DNA of 64,000 nt from Fimbriimonadaceae bacterium. Lineage in GTDB: Bacteria > Armatimonadota > Fimbriimonadia > Fimbriimonadales > Fimbriimonadaceae. Both the position numbers and the translations under genes were made by a program. Below the pieces are notes generated by a model. The model saw only the letters and a program-made list of their open reading frames with translations, did not search any database and had not been told where the DNA came from. Within the stretch, counting starts at the first letter, position 1; each line of letters starts with the position of its first letter. Positions 15,987 through 22,827 of this stretch are shown here, piece by piece. The stretch lies in NCBI GenBank assembly GCA_022843485.1, contig JALHNM010000002.1:94238-158237 (forward strand), read 5' to 3'.

Positions 15987-16406
15987 GTGCGCGTGCGCAC
16001 CGATCGCAAGGGCTCGGCCCGCGGCTACGCGGGCAAGGGGTCGTTGGAGTTGGGGACCCGCCTCAGCTTCAGCGAGGCCGACGACCGCTTCGACCCCCTC
16101 CGCGCCCTCCTCCTGAGCCTTTGCGCCGAGCTGGCTGGGCGCCTGACGGCCGAGATGGCCCGCGCCCGGGCCGTCCTCGACGACCTTGAGATGGTCGCCA
16201 GGCTCTGGCTGGACGACCCCATGGCCGCCATCGGCGTCGTCGGCGCCCCAGGGGACGGCCGGGTGCGGCGGATCGAAGTGTCCGCCTTCGCGTCGACCCC
16301 CGACGGCGACCCCGTCCTCCAAGCCGCCTGGCGCCGCGCGTGCCAGGGGTCCGTCCTCGCCCGCTCGCTCTCCGCCGAGCTCGACCTCCAGTGCAAGTCC
16401 GTTTAA
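15987..16406 (+). CDS. possible OsmC/Ohr-family protein
   Basis: DPLRALLLSLCAELAG resembles the OsmC P-x-ELLLAALAxC first-Cys motif; second Cys in RRACQGS; weak assignment. Confidence 0.35.
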   Translation: MRVRTDRKGSARGYAGKGSLELGTRLSFSEADDRFDPLRALLLSLCAELAGRLTAEMARARAVLDDLEMVARLWLDDPMAAIGVVGAPGDGRVRRIEVSAFASTPDGDPVLQAAWRRACQGSVLARSLSAELDLQCKSV

Positions 16407-16416
16407 CCCCACCGCC

Positions 16417-17559
16417 ATGTACCGATTGAACCCACAAGAGACGCTCGCAGTGACCCGCGCCGCCGAAGTTGCGGACCGAACCATCGCCCCCCTCGCCGCC
16501 CAGATCGACGAACAAGCCCGCTTCCCGAGCGAGTCCGTGAGCGCCCTCGCCGAGGCCGGGTTGTTCGGCCTCACCGTCCCAACCGAGTTCGGCGGACAAG
16601 GGGCGGGCCTGCGTGCCGCCGCCGCTGTGCTCGACACCGTCGCCCAGCGCTGCCCGTCGACCGCGATGGTCTATCTCATGCACCTCTGCGGTATTGCGTG
16701 CTACAAGGCGAACCCCCATGTCGCGTCCGAGGCGCTGCGGGCCGCCGCCCGGGGCGAGCACCTCTCCACCCTCGCCTGGAGCGAAATGGGCTCCCGCAGC
16801 CACTTCTGGGCCCCGGTCAGCAAGGCCGAGCCCCAGGGCGACGCTGTCCGGCTCCGGGCCGAGAAGTCCTGGGTGACCTCCGCCGGGCACGCCGACGGCT
16901 ATGTCGTCACGACCGGCACCGCCGAAGGCGGGATCGACCTCTATCTGCTCCAGAAGGACGACGCTGGCCTCGAGGTGGCGGGCCCCTGGAACGCCCTCGG
17001 GATGCGGGGCACTGCCTCCGCCCCGATGCGCCTCGCCGGGGTCGAGGCCGGTTCCGACCGCCGCCTCAGCGAGCCCGGCCAGGCGTTCGGCATGATGATG
17101 GGCCATGTACTGCCCCAGTTCCAGACCGGCAACGCCGCCGTCTCGATCGGTGCCGCCGAGTCCGCCGTCCGCGCCACCGCCGGGCACCTGACCGGGCAGG
17201 GGTTCGAGCACCTCGGCACCAAGCTCGCCGACCTCCCCAACCTGCGCCACCGCCTCGCCGCGATGCGTATCGAGACCGACAAGGCCCGCGCCCTGCTCGC
17301 CGCCACGTTCGACGCCCTCGAGTCGGAGGACCCTGGAGCCATGCTCCTCGTCCTCGAGTCCAAGGCGATGGCGGCCGACACCGCCCTCCTCGTCACCGAC
17401 CTCGCGATGAGGGCTTGCGGCGGGGCCGCCTTCAGCCGCCACCTAGGCGTCGAGCGCGTGTTCCGTGACGCCAGGGCCATGAGCGTCATGGCCCCGACTT
17501 CCGACGTGCTCCACGACTTCGTCGGCAAGGCGCTCTGCGGCATGGAGCTCTTCTCGTGA
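16417..17559 (+). CDS. acyl-CoA dehydrogenase family protein
   Basis: MYRLNPQETLAVTRAAEVADRTIAPLAAQIDEQARFPSESVSALAEAGLFGLTVPTEFGG (ACAD N-domain); C-terminal ACAD helical domain; the 77 upstream track codons are artefact. Confidence 0.8.
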   Translation: MYRLNPQETLAVTRAAEVADRTIAPLAAQIDEQARFPSESVSALAEAGLFGLTVPTEFGGQGAGLRAAAAVLDTVAQRCPSTAMVYLMHLCGIACYKANPHVASEALRAAARGEHLSTLAWSEMGSRSHFWAPVSKAEPQGDAVRLRAEKSWVTSAGHADGYVVTTGTAEGGIDLYLLQKDDAGLEVAGPWNALGMRGTASAPMRLAGVEAGSDRRLSEPGQAFGMMMGHVLPQFQTGNAAVSIGAAESAVRATAGHLTGQGFEHLGTKLADLPNLRHRLAAMRIETDKARALLAATFDALESEDPGAMLLVLESKAMAADTALLVTDLAMRACGGAAFSRHLGVERVFRDARAMSVMAPTSDVLHDFVGKALCGMELFS

Positions 17560-18356
17560 GGCCCGTCCTCGTCGGCGCCGTTGTCTACGACCCCAAGGTC
17601 GTCACGATCTGGGAGATCATCCGCCGCTACTTCGCCGAGCAGGGGGTGCCGATGGAGCCGGTCTTCTACGGCGACTACACCACCCAAGTCCAGGGCCTCC
17701 TCGACGGGCAGGTCGACGTCGCCTGGAACTCGCCGCTCGCCTGGGTGGACGCCCAACGGCGCAGCGGCGGCACCTGCCGGGCCATCGCCATGCGCGACAC
17801 CGACCGCGACCGCCAAACCCGCTTCGTCGTCCGCCGCGAGTCGGGCTATGGCTCGCTGGCCGACCTCGCCGGGCGCCCGGTCGGCTTCGGCGCCCAAGAC
17901 TCCCCCCAGGCCCACCTCATCCCGCTCCGGCGGCTGATGAGCGAGGGGATCGACGTCACCGTGCGCCGTTTCGACGTGAAAGTCGGCCTCCACGGCGACC
18001 ACGTGGGAGGCGAGCGCGACGCCTTCGACGCCCTCGCGGCCGGGGAGGTCGAGGCCGCCTGCGTGCTCGACCTCAACTGGGAGCTCTGGACCAGCGACGG
18101 CACCGCCGACCCCGCCCGCTTCGAGGCGCTCGACTCCACCGAGCCGTTCGACCACTGCGTCTTCACCGTCCGCGCCGACTTCGACCAGGAAACCGAGCGG
18201 CTTTGGCTGGCGGCCCTGCACTCGATGAGCTACGACAACCCCGAGCACCGCGAGATGATGGACATGGAGGGGCTGAAGGCGTGGCAGCCCGGACGCACGG
18301 ACGGCTTCGCCCAACTCGAGGACGCCGTCGCACGATTGGGGTACTTCCAGGCGTGA
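17556..18356 (+). CDS. PhnD/SsuA-like (phosphonate-type) substrate-binding domain protein, no signal peptide
   Basis: PVLVGAVVYDPKVVTIWEIIRRYFAEQGVPMEPVFYGDYTTQVQGLLDGQVDVAW; GTG start overlaps the ACAD stop (GTGA). Confidence 0.6.
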   Translation: MRPVLVGAVVYDPKVVTIWEIIRRYFAEQGVPMEPVFYGDYTTQVQGLLDGQVDVAWNSPLAWVDAQRRSGGTCRAIAMRDTDRDRQTRFVVRRESGYGSLADLAGRPVGFGAQDSPQAHLIPLRRLMSEGIDVTVRRFDVKVGLHGDHVGGERDAFDALAAGEVEAACVLDLNWELWTSDGTADPARFEALDSTEPFDHCVFTVRADFDQETERLWLAALHSMSYDNPEHREMMDMEGLKAWQPGRTDGFAQLEDAVARLGYFQA

Positions 18357-19528
18357 AGCTGCCCCTCCTGCCCGTCACGACCGTCGGCAGCTGGCCCCGG
18401 TCCGAGGCGCTGCTCAAGGAGCAACGCGCCCTGCGGGCGGGCCGCAGCTCGCGCGAGCGGTTCCAGGCCCTGGCCGCCGCCGAGGTCGCCGAGTTCGTGG
18501 CGCTGCAGGAGGCGGTCGGCGTCGACGTCCTCACCGACGGCGAGCAACGGCGGGACAACTTCTACTCGTTCGTCGCCGACAAGCTCGACGGCGTGCAGCT
18601 CATGACCCTCGGCGACATGCTCGACCTCGTCGAGGACAAAGCCGGTTTCGAACGCCTCCTCCAGACCCTCGACGTACCCGCCTTCGGGATCAGCAACCCC
18701 ACCTGCGTCGGAAAGGTGTCCGTCCGCGAGCCGATCGCCCTGGACGAGGCCCGGTTCCTGCGGGCGGCCACCGACCGGCCGATCAAGGTGCCGCTCCCCG
18801 GGCCGTACCTGCTGACCCGGGCGATGTGGGTGCCCGAGGCCGCAGGCCGCTACTACGCGAGCAAGGAGGAGCTGGGCGAGGAGGTCGTGGCGATCCTGGC
18901 CGACGAGGTGCGGCGGCTCGTGGCGGAGGGCGTGGACTTCGTGCAGTTCGACGAGCCCGTGCTCACCGAGTTGGTCTTCTCCCAGGGCGAGACGCGCACG
19001 TTCATGTGCGCCGCCCTCGCCGCCCGCAGCGACCCCAAGGAGGAGCTCGACTTCGCGGTCGGGCTGATCAACCAGGTCGCCGAAGCGGGGAAGGGGTGCC
19101 GCACTGGGCTCCACGTCTGCCGCGGCAACTGGAGCCAGCGCGAGGAGACCCTGCTCGCCGGGCCCTACCACCCGCTCGTGCCCGTCTTCGACCGCCTCGC
19201 CGTGGACCAGCTCGTGCTCGAGTACGCCACCCCCCGGGCCGGGCCGCTCATCCCGATGGGAGGGAAGGAACTCGGGCTCGGGGCCGTCAACCCCCGCACG
19301 GCCAAGGTCGAGACCCCAGACGAGATCGCTGCCCGCATCCACGAGGCCCTCGCCCACGTCCCCGCGGACCGGCTGTGGCTCAACCCCGACTGCGGGTTCG
19401 GCACCTTCTCGCTCCGACCCATGAACGACCGCGACACCGCCCGGCGCAAGTTGGAGTCGCTCGTCGCCGCCGCCCAGGCGGTGCGGGCCGAGCTGGCCGG
19501 GGCCGCCGACCGCCGGGAAGGGGCCTGA
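18353..19528 (+). CDS. cobalamin-independent methionine synthase II (MetE C-terminal-domain-like) protein
   Basis: LPVTTVGSWPRSEALL ... ELDFAVGLINQV ... CGFGT (UROD/MetE-like fold); GTG start overlaps the preceding stop. Confidence 0.7.
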   Translation: MKLPLLPVTTVGSWPRSEALLKEQRALRAGRSSRERFQALAAAEVAEFVALQEAVGVDVLTDGEQRRDNFYSFVADKLDGVQLMTLGDMLDLVEDKAGFERLLQTLDVPAFGISNPTCVGKVSVREPIALDEARFLRAATDRPIKVPLPGPYLLTRAMWVPEAAGRYYASKEELGEEVVAILADEVRRLVAEGVDFVQFDEPVLTELVFSQGETRTFMCAALAARSDPKEELDFAVGLINQVAEAGKGCRTGLHVCRGNWSQREETLLAGPYHPLVPVFDRLAVDQLVLEYATPRAGPLIPMGGKELGLGAVNPRTAKVETPDEIAARIHEALAHVPADRLWLNPDCGFGTFSLRPMNDRDTARRKLESLVAAAQAVRAELAGAADRREGA

Positions 19529-19551: not shown

Positions 19552-19740
19552 ATGGGGAACGAGGACGAGGGGAAGGTCGCCGAGGCTCGGGCCAAGTGCG
19601 GCGAGCAGGACGCCTGGGGGAACAGCGTCGCCGCCCTCCGTGCGAACCTCAAGCTGACCCCGCTCGAGAGGCTTCGGCGGCTCGAGCGGGCCGCCCGGTT
19701 CGTGGAGAAGTATCGTGGGGCAGCCCGAAAGGCCGATTGA
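19552..19740 (+). CDS. small protein (62 aa), possible antitoxin-like partner of the downstream nucleotidyltransferase
   Basis: ATG at 19552 in the tail of a spurious 304-aa track ORF; sequence ...LKLTPLERLRRLERAARFVEKYRG; overlaps the start of the NTase gene by ~26 nt. Confidence 0.35.
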   Translation: MGNEDEGKVAEARAKCGEQDAWGNSVAALRANLKLTPLERLRRLERAARFVEKYRGAARKAD

Positions 19741-20218
19741 GTTCGAGCGCGTCCTTGCCCTCGTCTTTGACGCAGGGGTGGACTTCGTCACGATCGGCGG
19801 TGTGGCGCTCGTGCTCTCCGGTGGCGCCCATGTGACGCAGGACGTCGACTTCGCCTTCGTCCGCCGTCGCGAGAACGCCAAGCGGCTCGCGGACGCCCTC
19901 GCCCCCTTCCACCCGCGGCCGCTCGATTGGCCCGAGGGGTTGCCCTACGTCTGGGACGACCAGACCTTGATGAACGCCACCACCCTGACCCTGGAGACCG
20001 ACATCGGCCGGATCGACCTCCTCGCCGAGCCCGACGGCGCCCCGCCCTACGAAGCGCTCAAGGCCCGGGCCAACGTGTTCGACCTGGACGGCCGCCCCGT
20101 GCGTGTGGCCTGCATCGAAGACCTCATCGCCATGAAGCGCGCCGCCGGCCGCCCCAAAGACCTCGCCCACATCGCCGAGCTCGAGACCATCCAACGCCTC
20201 CTCGCCGAAGGCAGTTAG
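19715..20218 (+). CDS. nucleotidyltransferase-fold protein (AbiEii / DUF6036-like)
   Basis: FVTIGGVALVLSGGAHVTQDVDFAFV (Pol-beta-type NTase G-S-x9-DxD motif) and C-terminal IAMKRAAGRPKDLAHIAEL. Confidence 0.55.
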   Translation: MGQPERPIEFERVLALVFDAGVDFVTIGGVALVLSGGAHVTQDVDFAFVRRRENAKRLADALAPFHPRPLDWPEGLPYVWDDQTLMNATTLTLETDIGRIDLLAEPDGAPPYEALKARANVFDLDGRPVRVACIEDLIAMKRAAGRPKDLAHIAELETIQRLLAEGS

Positions 20219-20541
20219 CCCCCGGCGCGCAGGCCACCAGGCCCGCAGGCGCACCGCCGCGAACGCCCACGCCTGCCCCCTGACGACCACACTAGGTCCC
20301 CGCCTCGCTCCCACTCAACCACGGCGCGAGTTGGGGCCCCGGAAGGTAACGGTGAGGGGAGGGAGCTGCTCCGGGTCTATCGGCTGCGTTATAGTGCCCC
20401 ATGGCCACCCAGGCTCTCCGAATCGTGACGGCGCTCTCGACCTTAGGCGCGGCCTCGGTCGCCCTCCAGCTCGAGTTCCAGTACCGGACCGGCGTCTAAG
20501 GCTTCGACCAACGACGCTCCGGTCTTCTTAACGGCGGGAGA

Positions 20542-21441
20542 ATGTACTGCGTACCGTCGAGCTTCGTGAACGCTTGCGGCTACCTGCGGGACAACGGGAT
20601 GCGCACCATGCTGGGCGGGAGCAACCCCAACAGCCACGCGGAGATCACCTACCTGCTCCTTCTCATGGGGGCGCCCATGGGAACCGACCCCACCAAGGGC
20701 ATAAAGGGCTCCTACCCGGTCGAGTGGTCGTGGGTGGACTGGAAAACCAGCAAGCTCGTCTACCTCGGCGCCTGGAGCCCCACCGGCTCCTGGAACCACG
20801 ACACGGTCATGGACCTGTTCCGCTCCGGGGCCATGGTGAGGCTCGGCTATGGCCGCTACGCCAACGTCAACGGCACCTGGTTCCGCACCGGCGGCCCGGC
20901 GGTCACCCGCAACCTGAGGGGGCGTGTCGCCGCCATCGACGTCGACGAGGTCACGGGCGGGTTCGTCGCCCTTGACGCCAAGCTCGGGGGCACGACCGCC
21001 TACGACACCGACTTCGTCACCTCCCGACGCGAGCCGCTGCTCGGGATTGTCCCCGCCCGGCCGGTGACGAACATCGCCGTCGGTGAGGCTGTGTTCTCCG
21101 TGGACTCCGAAACCGGCGACTACCTCGTCGCTGTCACCGGGGAGCAAGGCTGGACCCGGTTCGCCCGCGCTGGGGCAGCCCGGTTCGGCACTCGCGTCAC
21201 GGCGAAGGTGGCGGGCGGGGTGCAAGGGCTCATGGCCGGGCCGCAAGGCACCGTGTTCGTCCAGAACGGCTCCAACCGGCTGGACGCCTACTCTCACACC
21301 GGGTCCATACGGCCGTCCGAGTTCACCGGCCTCCAGGCGAGAGGGCCGTTCCAGATCCCCAAGAGCTTCCGTGCCGTCCGCCCAGGCCAAATGACCGGCC
21401 CCGGCTGGAACGACGTCCCCCCGGAAGGCAACAACCCCTAA
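20542..21441 (+). CDS. hypothetical protein (unknown function)
   Basis: 299-aa ORF with no recognised motif; N-terminus MYCVPSSFVNACGYLRDNG. Confidence 0.4.
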   Translation: MYCVPSSFVNACGYLRDNGMRTMLGGSNPNSHAEITYLLLLMGAPMGTDPTKGIKGSYPVEWSWVDWKTSKLVYLGAWSPTGSWNHDTVMDLFRSGAMVRLGYGRYANVNGTWFRTGGPAVTRNLRGRVAAIDVDEVTGGFVALDAKLGGTTAYDTDFVTSRREPLLGIVPARPVTNIAVGEAVFSVDSETGDYLVAVTGEQGWTRFARAGAARFGTRVTAKVAGGVQGLMAGPQGTVFVQNGSNRLDAYSHTGSIRPSEFTGLQARGPFQIPKSFRAVRPGQMTGPGWNDVPPEGNNP

Positions 21442-21613
21442 CCACCCGCCGTCGGCCGGCCGGGTCGGGCGGGTCGAAGGCGAGGAGCGGGCAGGGTGAC
21501 GAGGTCTCCCCAGCGAGTGGGGCTAGGGGGTAAGGGCTATCATGCGAGTGCGAGTGGTACCGGGAGACACGGGGGCCAGAGAGTCCCCGCTCCAGGCTCT
21601 CCCCGGAGGCGTC

Positions 21614-22135
21614 ATGAGAACGAGCGAGGCGACCCTCTACATACTCTCCGGACTCCCGGGAAGTGGGAAGACGACCCTCTCCCAGTCGCTGGCACGGCGC
21701 CTCGGTGCCGCGCACCTCCGAATCGACACGATCGAGCAGGCGCTCAGAGACCTGGGCCGTGTCGATGTGCACGACGAGGGGTATCGCCTCGCGTACCGGG
21801 TGGCCTCAGACGTCCTCAACGCAGGCGTGAGCGTGGTCGCCGACTCCTGCAACCCTCTCGAGTTGACCCGGCGTGCATGGGAACAGGTGGCCATGGACGC
21901 CGGCGTCCCGTACGTGAACATTGAGATCGTCTGCTCCGACGCACGAGAACACCGGGAGAGGGTGGAGACCCGAGCCTCGACCGTGCAAGGGTTGCGCCTG
22001 CCGACGTGGGCCGAGGTCGTGAGTCGCGACTACGACGATTGGACGGCCGAGCGTATCCTTCTCGATACGGCGCGCAAGCCCGAAGAGGAGTGCCTCGATG
22101 AACTGCTCTCCAGGCTATCGGGCGCGGCCGGCTAG
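21614..22135 (+). CDS. P-loop kinase (AAA_33 / zeta-toxin / chloramphenicol-phosphotransferase-like family)
   Basis: LYILSGLPGSGKTTLSQSLARRLGAAHLRIDTIEQAL Walker A; ~170 aa. Confidence 0.6.
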   Translation: MRTSEATLYILSGLPGSGKTTLSQSLARRLGAAHLRIDTIEQALRDLGRVDVHDEGYRLAYRVASDVLNAGVSVVADSCNPLELTRRAWEQVAMDAGVPYVNIEIVCSDAREHRERVETRASTVQGLRLPTWAEVVSRDYDDWTAERILLDTARKPEEECLDELLSRLSGAAG

Positions 22136-22206: not shown

Positions 22207-22827
22207 TCAGGCGGTGCCGTAGAGGCGGTCGCCGTAGTCGCCTAGGCCGGGGAGGATGTACTTGGAGTCGTCGAGGCCCCGGTCGACGGCGGCGGTGAAG
22301 ACGGGAACGTCCGGGTGGGCCTCGGCGAGGCGGGCGATGCCCTCGGGGGCGGAGACGATCGAGGCCATCGCGACGGACGCGGCGCCGTGGGACTTCAGGA
22401 GCCCGACCGCCTGGGCCGCCGATCCCCCAGTCGCGAGCATCGGGTCGACGAGGAGGGTGTGCCGGTCACGCAGCGGCGGCAGCTTGACGTAGTAGCTGTG
22501 GGCGACGGCGGTCTCGTGCGAGCGTTCGAGGCCGATATAGCCCACGGCGACGTCGGGGAAGAGCTCCAGGGCGGGTTCGAGCATCGAGAGCCCAGCACGC
22601 AGGACGGGCACCACGGCGAGCCCGACGGCCAGCGAGGCACCGTCGGTCGTCTCGAGCGGTGTCTCGACCGGGTGGGCGCGCTCGGGCACGGACCGGGTGG
22701 CGTCCAGGATGACGAGCGTCGAGAGCACCCAGGCGTAGCGCCGGAAGGTGGCAGGCGGGGTCGTGCGGTCGCGCAGTCCGGTGAGGAGGTGGCGGGCGAG
22801 CGGGTGGTCGACGACGTGGACGGCCAT
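22207..22827 (-). CDS. upp: uracil phosphoribosyltransferase
   Basis: MAVHVVDHPLARHLLTGLRDRTTPPATFR ... DPMLATGGSA (PRPP-binding motif). Confidence 0.85.
   Translation of the reverse strand: MAVHVVDHPLARHLLTGLRDRTTPPATFRRYAWVLSTLVILDATRSVPERAHPVETPLETTDGASLAVGLAVVPVLRAGLSMLEPALELFPDVAVGYIGLERSHETAVAHSYYVKLPPLRDRHTLLVDPMLATGGSAAQAVGLLKSHGAASVAMASIVSAPEGIARLAEAHPDVPVFTAAVDRGLDDSKYILPGLGDYGDRLYGTA

Follow-up and report, generated by a model that had tools for sequence, protein, structure and literature searches.

A small upstream gene and a DUF6036-type nucleotidyltransferase gene in a Fimbriimonadaceae bacterium as a probable MenAT1-like toxin-antitoxin pair, beside a decayed peptidase gene and a solitary kinase gene

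The window considered here is a stretch of 64,000 nucleotides (nt) with a GC content of about 70% from a Fimbriimonadaceae bacterium (GenBank assembly GCA_022843485.1, contig JALHNM010000002.1, positions 94,238 to 158,237 of the forward strand), and its locus of interest was read from the list of open reading frames (ORFs) and their translations. This locus contains a small ORF for a protein of 62 amino acids (aa) that runs into the start of a gene for a minimal nucleotidyltransferase (NTase), followed by the remains of a peptidase gene and by a gene for a P-loop kinase (Table 1). Our analysis suggests that the small ORF and the NTase gene form a type II toxin-antitoxin pair resembling MenAT1 of Mycobacterium tuberculosis, with a new antitoxin module, a reading to which we give a probability of about 0.7. 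What we observe for the pair is a strict coupling of the two genes, a modular partner of the kind found among antitoxins, conserved catalytic residues and a match in fold to the toxin MenT1. The NTase belongs to a Pfam family other than that of MenT1, and its partner carries a previously unannotated core of antitoxin type, which is widespread in soil phyla.

The coupling of the two genes was assessed in 80 loci from species-representative genomes and in 8 metagenome loci, out of a group of about 3,590 protein clusters related to the NTase, whose best named relatives are from Armatimonadota/Fimbriimonadaceae. The 80 genome loci come from Armatimonadota, Acidobacteriota, Actinomycetota (Thermoleophilia), Verrucomicrobiota, Gemmatimonadota, Planctomycetota, Myxococcota, Methylomirabilota, Nitrospirota, Eremiobacterota and Binatia. 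The small protein was sought with a hidden Markov model (HMM) that was built from four seed peptides and iterated over the six-frame translations of the loci. In 80/80 genome loci, which represent about 11 phyla, and likewise in 8/8 metagenome loci, the NTase gene has a homologue of the small ORF directly before it in the same orientation, so that two adjacent, co-oriented and coupled small genes are present in every one of the 88. The two genes are unfused at 84 junctions; 47 of these are overlaps of 4 nt (40) or 1 nt (7), and nearly all of the remainder overlap as well, mostly by 7-47 nt; in the window the NTase start overlaps the end of the small ORF by 26 nt. Four loci from metagenomes or metagenome-assembled genomes (L005, L007, L009 and L011) illustrate the independence of the pair from its surroundings, the upstream ORF being conserved and overlapping the NTase start in each of them and the neighbouring genes being different (succinyl-CoA ligase, adenine glycosylase, IMPDH and GroEL). 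No third gene was conserved across the 80 genome loci, the largest shared flanking cluster being found in 8 of them, all from Thermoleophilia. One Thermoanaerobaculia metagenome-assembled genome carries two complete modules on different contigs (L051 and L076). Programmed frameshifting from the small ORF into the NTase was also considered for the overlapping frames and was rejected because, judged from the coordinates, the frame offset varies among close relatives, being +1 in the window, L007 and L011 but +2 in L005.

The partner itself is built in the manner of an antitoxin. Members of the small-protein family share a conserved core of about 47 aa (CGEQDAWGNSVAALRANLKLTPLERLRRLERAARFVEKYRGAARKA; consensus vIEAYKkdvDrTLLRENLkLTPeERL...ELRrAgR), in which an invariant Arg, R40 of the window protein, and L33 are the sole invariant or nearly invariant positions and no His is conserved. 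This core has no match in Pfam or NCBIfam, and the 62-aa protein has none in PADLOC; the hits that the small-protein profile did produce in the PDB and Pfam, to a designed repeat protein and weakly to the Trp repressor, were judged spurious. In most loci, the window included, the core stands alone. In 12 loci from Thermoleophilia, Gemmatimonadota and other groups it forms the C-terminal tail of an XRE-type helix-turn-helix (HTH) protein, with HTH_3 scores of 39-52 bits in the seven genome-locus partners that were scanned, and in L083 (876-1388), the sole such case in the 88 loci, a PhdYeFM_antitox domain precedes it (54.4 bits, cut-off 29.8). The core family thus includes modular proteins with DNA-binding domains of known antitoxin classes. 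On a plasmid of Mycolicibacterium rufum, the gene before a more distant relative of the NTase encodes an XRE-HTH protein (HTH_3, 55 bits) whose tail resembles a degenerate core. The core and the NTase can also be joined covalently, as in L015, L016, L017, L019 and the proteins P0056 and P0057 (about 234 aa); these single-chain forms, which come from Capsulimonadaceae and other Armatimonadota, could help in modelling the contacts between core and enzyme. The first-pass annotation of this region, which was made from the letters alone, had described the small ORF and the NTase as toxin-antitoxin-like, and the strict coupling, the overlapping genes and the modular partner of antitoxin type all bear this description out.

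Two further observations concern the surroundings of the module in other genomes. Additional small-core ORFs, partly truncated, lie upstream of the main module in L048 (1150-1320) and L077 (2-271). The loci L009 and L010 (400-2000) carry the same NTase module and are otherwise syntenic, but a 128-aa ORF of L009 is replaced in L010 by a RelE/HTH_3 pair and a ferredoxin gene, a difference that points to a local turnover of toxin-antitoxin genes next to the NTase module.

The NTase is assigned by Pfam to DUF6036 (26 bits, cut-off 23.6) and DUF2204 (24.5 bits, cut-off 20.3). Of the four motifs conserved in NTase toxins of the MenT/DUF1814 type (hGG/S, DxD, a third acidic residue and K...R...D..D), all but the last Asp can be traced in it, and G28, G29, T41, D43, D45, D101, K141, R146 and D149 are invariant among 34 members of the family. 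When the family profile was compared with the sequences in the PDB, its best match was MenT1 (Rv0078A) in entry 8an4 with an expectation value (E) of 0.0036, and this profile search aligned T41, D43, K141, R146 and D149 of the NTase with T39, D41, K137, R146 and D149 of MenT1. This last Asp, D152 in MenT1, has His152 as its counterpart in the window protein, and this position varies across the family. A comparison by hhalign of the NTase profile with a MenT1 fragment rebuilt from the profile alignment gave a probability of 24% and an E of 8e-4, a result that is weak because the template was a single sequence. The fold points in the same direction, as the AlphaFold2 (AF2) model of the NTase, with a predicted local distance difference test (pLDDT) value of 93, has 8an5_B, a MenAT1 structure, as its top Foldseek match in the PDB (E 1.9e-6, template-modelling (TM) score 0.65), the next structural neighbours being TM1012, ANT(2'')-Ia, JHP933 and LnuA.

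MenT1 is an NTase toxin that acts on the acceptor stem of tRNA, and its antitoxin MenA1 is a protein of 68 aa without a DNA-binding domain, encoded upstream of the toxin, which bridges two MenT1 molecules and triggers the auto-phosphorylation of T39 (PMC10435456, PMC11375011). The same work assigned the residue roles, including the need for D152 in the activity on tRNA (PMC10435456, PMC11375011). In the family studied here, the invariant T41 stands two residues before the first catalytic Asp and would, from the alignment, occupy the position of the phospho-acceptor of the MenT toxins (T39 in MenT1, S78 in MenT3). By analogy with these proteins we infer the toxicity, the target and the mode of neutralisation of the pair in the window. 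The two genes would be expressed as a translationally coupled type II pair of the MenAT1 kind, in which the DUF6036 NTase would be the toxin, adding nucleotides to the 3′ ends of tRNA and thus blocking aminoacylation, and the 62-aa protein would be the antitoxin, with its core of about 47 aa binding and blocking the NTase. Like MenA1, the small protein may push Thr41 toward the bound nucleoside triphosphate, so that the NTase would auto-phosphorylate and switch itself off.

The likeness to MenAT1 (Rv0078B/Rv0078A; structures 8AN4, 8AN5 and 8RR5) extends to the layout of the genes, since in both cases a short upstream gene without a DNA-binding domain, for 68 aa there and 62 aa here, precedes a minimal NTase of 170-190 aa. 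The two systems differ in that the toxin of MenAT1 is a DUF1814/AbiEii NTase whereas the NTase here is of the DUF6036/DUF2204 type, in that 21 homologues of MenA1 have been reported whereas the small-protein family described here is found in 88/88 loci from about 11 phyla, and in that the core here is also found fused to an XRE-HTH domain, to Phd/YefM or to the NTase. Two other NTase systems come close to this arrangement. The type IV system AbiE likewise combines an NTase of the polymerase β (Pol-β) fold, with GG, DxD and K...R..D motifs, with a partner gene located upstream, and the pair in the window had been compared with AbiEi/AbiEii. The partner in the window, however, is a protein of 62 aa without the winged-HTH/COG5340 domain of AbiEi, AbiEii is about twice as large as the NTase, the score of the NTase against the Pfam AbiEii family (PF08843, DUF1814) is 13.1 bits, under the gathering score of 22.5, and the nearest structure is that of MenT1. 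The PADLOC model for AbiEii gave 18 bits over residues 9-63 only. In the absence of an AbiEi-type partner we do not retain the AbiE label. The type VII system HEPN-MNT (HepT/MntA) likewise has a minimal NTase and a small adjacent gene, but there the NTase is the antitoxin and is paired with a HEPN RNase that carries an Rx4-6H motif and has 110 aa or more. The partner here is helical-looking, is encoded upstream and occurs in fusions with DNA-binding domains of antitoxin type; being too short for a HEPN domain and having no conserved His, it does not place the pair in HEPN-MNT.

Several observations weigh against the assignment of the pair as a MenAT1-like toxin-antitoxin system. The sequence similarity to MenT1 is remote, as the profile and hhalign values given above indicate (E 0.0036, and 24% with a single-sequence template), D152 of MenT1 has no conserved counterpart, and no similarity in sequence could be detected between the small protein and MenA1. 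Plasmids rarely carry the module (2 matches) and viral contigs hardly ever (1 partial match), and in Thermoleophilia (L024, L032, L033, L040, L041, L082, L085 and L086) it is syntenic, being located between valS and clpX-clpP. This rarity and synteny are more in keeping with a chromosomal gene pair that is stably inherited than with an element of high mobility. The covalent fusions of core and NTase fit a two-subunit enzyme equally well. These cautions are the reason that our estimate stands at about 0.7. The score below the cut-off for Pfam AbiEii also counts against the assignment, and NTases that act on small molecules, ANT(2'')-Ia and LnuA, are nearly as close in structure (TM 0.55-0.61). 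Apart from this, L040 (895-6503) gives an example of how unusually stable the placement of the HTH-core and NTase genes can be, a placement that would be called 'housekeeping-like' for a putative toxin-antitoxin pair.

Some of these same observations would also fit a pair that is not an addiction or defence system. The two proteins could instead make up a single non-toxic enzyme with two subunits, or one could be the substrate of the other, as in the case of HepT, which is nucleotidylated by MntA. The small protein would then be a regulatory or specificity subunit, or would itself be nucleotidylated. The coupling of 100% over about 11 phyla, a core that is unusually conserved for an antitoxin, the natural single-chain fusions, the stable site between valS and clpX-clpP, the scarcity on plasmids and in viral contigs and the missing equivalent of MenT1 D152 would all be expected of such an enzyme. 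We nevertheless consider this alternative unlikely, since the core is attached in several loci to XRE-HTH and Phd/YefM domains, the DNA-binding modules that type II antitoxins normally have, since the nearest solved structure is that of a toxin in complex with a similarly small antitoxin encoded upstream, and since the contexts of the module vary between genomes, one of which has two copies. The form of this alternative in which the small protein resembles HepT is also opposed by its features, as a protein of 62 aa with Arg40 and Leu33 as its sole invariant or near-invariant residues and with no conserved His is not a HEPN protein. A quite different function would be that of a small-molecule NTase of the ANT(2'') or Lnu type, which modifies antibiotics, with an upstream ORF that is incidental or regulatory. 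The presence of ANT(2'')-Ia, LnuA and TM1012 among the top structures (TM 0.55-0.61, E 1e-5 to 1e-3) is what speaks for it; resistance NTases, however, do not have a strictly co-inherited, overlapping partner with fusions of antitoxin type, MenT1 ranks first by sequence profile and by structure alike, and the invariant Thr two residues ahead of the first catalytic Asp is also at odds with such a function, which we therefore regard as very improbable.

If the pair is a toxin-antitoxin system, a broader proposal can be made, which we hold tentatively and with clearly less confidence than the assignment itself. The pair may represent a large and undescribed branch of NTase toxin-antitoxin systems, with about 3,600 protein clusters that span at least 11 phyla, mostly of soil and freshwater, in which a module with an invariant Arg in 'LTPxERL' and without a Pfam family would act in a way unlike both MenA1 and AbiEi. 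Because an equivalent of MenT1 D152 is missing, the toxin may use another substrate or another chemistry than the extension of the CCA end of tRNA. In the library that was searched, no relevant paper on DUF6036, DUF2204, PF19502 or PF09970 was found, and PHROGs gave no match to the NTase, to its small partner or to the peptidase.

Table 1. Features of the locus, in coordinates of the window.
Feature	Position	Strand	Basis
Small partner protein, 62 aa, putative antitoxin	19552..19740	+	Homology, GC3, strict linkage to the NTase
Minimal nucleotidyltransferase of DUF6036/DUF2204 type, 167 aa, putative MenT1-like toxin	19715..20218	+	GTG start; Pfam, profile, AF2 model
Decayed gene of a C39-like cysteine peptidase with NHL β-propeller	20401..21441	+	tblastn, family profile
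Remnant of the peptidase signal peptide and N-terminus, MATQALRIVTALSTLGAASVALQLEFQYRTGV	20401..20496	+	tblastn; GC3 0.88
In-frame TAA nonsense codon	20497..20499	+	tblastn alignments; relatives have Tyr or Phe
Residual 299-aa ORF inside the decayed peptidase gene	20542..21441	+	ORF list
Deletion junction RTGGPAVT	20884..20907	+	Overlap of two tblastn segments; P0002 alignment
Solitary AAA_33 P-loop kinase, 173 aa	21614..22135	+	Pfam, homologues, AF2 model

The coordinates of the features are collected in Table 1. The four ORFs that had been reported in this region are all present in the ORF list, and for the kinase a start at ATG 21614, rather than at the upstream ATG 21542, is supported by the family alignment. 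The region is flanked by metabolic genes and by upp, as had been noted: upstream of the small ORF lie a PhnD-like gene and then a MetE-like gene (Meth_synt_2) ending at 19528, and downstream of the kinase is upp (22207-22827, minus strand). Intergenic gaps of 182 nt and 172 nt separate the three parts of the region, that is, the NTase pair, the peptidase remnant and the kinase. The GC content at third codon positions (GC3) is 0.93-0.96 in the neighbouring genes, 0.93 in the small ORF outside its overlap with the NTase, 0.90 in the NTase, 0.89-0.90 in the 299-aa frame and 0.81 in the kinase; the coding status of the small ORF, the NTase and the kinase is supported by homology together with GC3 values of 0.81-0.93. 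Since the small ORF begins only 24 nt past the stop codon of the MetE-like gene, the NTase pair may be co-transcribed with the metabolic operon, further upstream in which an acyl-CoA-dehydrogenase-like ORF shares 4 nt (17556-17559) with the PhnD-like ORF (region 16186-19528). Rfam at gathering thresholds and ARAGORN, run over the window, found only two distant tRNAs, with none adjacent to the region and nothing in the intergenic gaps, and consensus scans of the region for promoters and terminators found no sites, such scans being uninformative for this phylum.

The first-pass annotation had regarded these four ORFs as one accessory islet, comprising an AbiEi/AbiEii-like pair, an unrecognisable 299-aa protein that could be a novel effector, and a zeta-toxin-like kinase. 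The ORFs are real as frames and the NTase pair does have the character of a toxin-antitoxin system, but the 299-aa ORF proved to be only a residual frame, and neither the AbiE label, the zeta kinase nor the effector withstood the analysis described here. The region consists of three independent accessory items and not of one system. The window carries one copy each of the NTase pair, the peptidase remnant and the kinase. The 4 kb around the NTase pair in the 88 loci contained no gene homologous to those for the kinase, the peptidase or GlmU, to upp, or to the MetE-like and PhnD-like genes, and the loci of the kinase (n=2) and of the peptidase (n=4) did not contain the other parts of the region; what looks like an islet is therefore a juxtaposition. 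There is no step in overall GC across the region, a lower GC3 being confined to the kinase, and the search for direct or inverted repeats flanking it yielded only short matches at the level of chance, with no tRNA adjacent; integrase genes were not looked for. A single defence or abortive-infection islet, with the kinase as a zeta-like toxin and the 299-aa protein as a new effector, could be argued for from the four co-oriented and adjacent genes between core metabolic genes and from weak PADLOC matches (AbiEii, 18 bits; mad8/VakA, 18 bits on the P-loop). Given the absence of co-occurrence, the intergenic gaps between the parts, a kinase that lacks the marks of a zeta toxin and an effector that is the remnant of a gene, we consider such an islet extremely improbable, and PADLOC, applied to the four proteins, returned only weak partial matches and called no system. 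The genes do not belong to housekeeping families with conserved synteny either; they are accessory genes found in different surroundings from one genome to the next.

The nature of the 299-aa ORF was at first obscured by the choice of search method. A word-indexed homology search with the 299-aa protein gave a single relative, P0002 (514 aa), to which the two halves of the ORF match with about 200 residues missing between them, and this would suggest an orphan. An exhaustive HMMER search with the 299-aa ORF and P0002 overturned this by finding 486 relatives, typically of about 500-650 aa among the best matches, which carry N-terminal signal peptides. The protein that had been called unrecognisable thus belongs to a family of C39-like cysteine peptidases of the papain fold with an NHL propeller. 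Among 48 members of the family D3, D5, Q6, C19 and H135 (P0002 numbering) are invariant, with Q6, C19 and H135 contained in the motifs DFDQRR, MYC(V/A)PTS and GGH, respectively. Pfam Peptidase_C39_2 matches 13 of the 48 members (best E 3e-5), and the C-terminal half of the protein matches β-propellers of the NHL type, namely the designed propeller Pizza (6ren, E 2.7e-15) and the NHL domains of TRIM2/3.

The gene of the window differs from the intact members of this family (P0243, P0002) by a TAA codon, by the replacement of an invariant Asp by Gly and by the loss of about 195 residues that include the catalytic His. When full-length relatives were used in tblastn, one frame could be followed from ATG 20401 to the stop codon, with matches to P0243 (E 5e-43 and 2e-40) whose two segments, P0243 1-170 and 364-546, overlap at the deletion junction. 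The part before the nonsense codon aligns with residues 1-33 of P0243 (MASHLRKTALLVAATALAAIAAPLDEFKYRADM), the codon following TAA encodes Gly where the family has an invariant Asp, and the frame past the TAA reads FDQRRSGLLNGGR-MYCVPSS. Over both retained parts, including the signal-peptide region and MYCVP(S/T)S, the window frame is 40-47% identical to family members. The family profile matches at positions 35-174 and 371-540 of 541, so that positions 175-370 (about 196) are absent by an in-frame deletion of about 195 residues, and the catalytic His of 'GGH' reads Pro at the junction (GGP). The hmmsearch run gave the window copy 597 bits, and no other sequence of the ten best matches aligns in two separated stretches. 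The full-length architecture with a signal peptide (about 540 aa) is not preserved, as the signal peptide is cut off by the TAA. The 299-aa ORF arises because ATG 20542 is the first ATG after this codon, and of the catalytic set it retains only the Cys; the codon for the Gln lies upstream of ATG 20542, behind the TAA, and the position of the His is Pro. Taken together, the nonsense codon, the lost invariant Asp and the missing stretch of about 195 residues mark the gene as a pseudogene, and from these alignments the frame at 20401-21441 is read as the decayed gene of a member of a predicted secreted family of C39-like cysteine peptidases with an NHL β-propeller. Its inactivation is probably recent, because the codon periodicity is retained.

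To judge from its sequence, the 299-aa ORF most likely makes no functional product, and the novel effector that had been proposed is a gene remnant with a nonsense codon and a large deletion. The retained codon periodicity (GC3 0.89-0.90) and the open frame of 299 codons count against decay, and the TAA codon, but not the deletion, could be an error of the assembly. In principle the ORF could encode a domesticated cytoplasmic protein made of a truncated N-terminal peptidase lobe and a partial propeller, for example with a role in binding or as a decoy. The open frame of 299 codons with its GC3 of 0.90, a deletion that is in frame and a Shine-Dalgarno-like stretch, GGGAGA, just 5′ of ATG 20542 are compatible with such a protein. 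Long open frames, however, persist by chance at a GC of 70%, and the presence of GGGAGA is explained by ancestry because it codes for NGG(R/N), which is conserved in the family. The product would be without signal peptide, oxyanion-hole Gln, catalytic His and about two propeller blades, an architecture that is the only one of its kind among the ten best of the 486 relatives, and we judge this alternative improbable.

Intact relatives of the peptidase occur in other settings. Some form part of giant surface proteins with Ig, HYR, cadherin-like and GEVED domains and others end in dockerin-like repeats (P0291, 1282 aa; P0348, 1411 aa; P0278; P0289), contexts that fit an extracellular role for the peptidase-propeller family. 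The full-length P0002 gene (L001, 4827-9718) is flanked by a divergent gene for an AraC-family regulator and has downstream a 322-aa gene and a gene for an ankyrin-repeat protein.

The kinase is a stand-alone, horizontally exchanged AAA_33 kinase in the fold class of adenosine 5′-phosphosulfate (APS) kinases and polynucleotide kinases, and it is not part of a toxin-antitoxin pair. It matches Pfam AAA_33 with 58.9 bits, so that this half of its earlier description as a zeta-toxin/AAA_33-like kinase stands. The zeta half does not: the score against Pfam Zeta_toxin (PF06414) is 20.5 bits, below the cut-off of 22.3, and covers profile positions 15-103 of 199, which is the P-loop half, and there is no partner gene. 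Zeta/PezT toxins likewise have the fold of a P-loop kinase, a Walker A motif and a catalytic Asp, but they are proteins of about 270 aa with an epsilon/PezA partner, whereas the kinase of the window has 173 aa and no epsilon/PezA-type gene upstream, where 172 nt of non-coding DNA and the peptidase remnant are found. The motifs of the kinase, which are invariant in its family, are the Walker A sequence GLPGSGKTT, Asp38 (RIDTIEQ), Asp77 (ADSCNP) and the lid residues Arg114/Arg120. Among PDB sequences, that of a fungal RNA 5′-OH kinase comes closest to it (9d8a, 32 bits). The structural neighbours of its AF2 model (pLDDT 84.5) are the putative kinase 2rhm, APS kinases and PSTK, followed by RNA/DNA 5′-OH kinases, gluconate kinase and PFKFB (6-phosphofructo-2-kinase/fructose-2,6-bisphosphatase), and no zeta toxin was present among the top 50 in the PDB. 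The matches of PADLOC models to the kinase were weak and restricted to the P-loop.

The distribution of the kinase is that of an exchanged gene. There are 3,895 homologues of about 171 aa, 70-86% identical, in Acidobacteriota, Bacillota and other phyla, and relatives at about 50% identity are found on 95 plasmids, for example of Vibrio and Sinorhizobium. The homologues stand alone among varied and unrelated accessory genes (L013, L014), and no tightly linked partner gene was shared between L013, L014 and the homologue on a Vibrio plasmid. The kinase has a GC of 0.66 and a GC3 of 0.81, compared with 0.70-0.73 and 0.93 for its neighbours, and the low GC3 suggests a recent acquisition. A reservation against this account is the unusually high conservation of this kinase family across phyla. 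On the Vibrio alginolyticus plasmid NZ_CP135970.1 (L095, 4645-5411) a kinase homologue is located beside a GNAT/DUF1778 toxin-antitoxin pair of the TacAT type, in an accessory context with hypothetical genes around it.

The peptidase remnant and the kinase are ordinary in themselves and matter mainly as corrections, in that an apparent orphan effector is a decayed gene and a 'zeta-like' kinase is a solitary one. The NTase pair is of wider interest. There is active research on NTase toxins, MenT and AbiEii among them, with respect to the inactivation of tRNA, phage defence and antitoxin-induced auto-phosphorylation, and the pair, if our assignment is right, would extend the theme of NTase toxins to another Pfam family, DUF6036. 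Cultured carriers of the module exist in Nitrospira moscoviensis NSP M-1 and Conexibacter sp. CPCC 205762. The partner domain is compact and is unannotated in Pfam and NCBIfam, and with its definition here the partner gene can be recognised in thousands of genomes.

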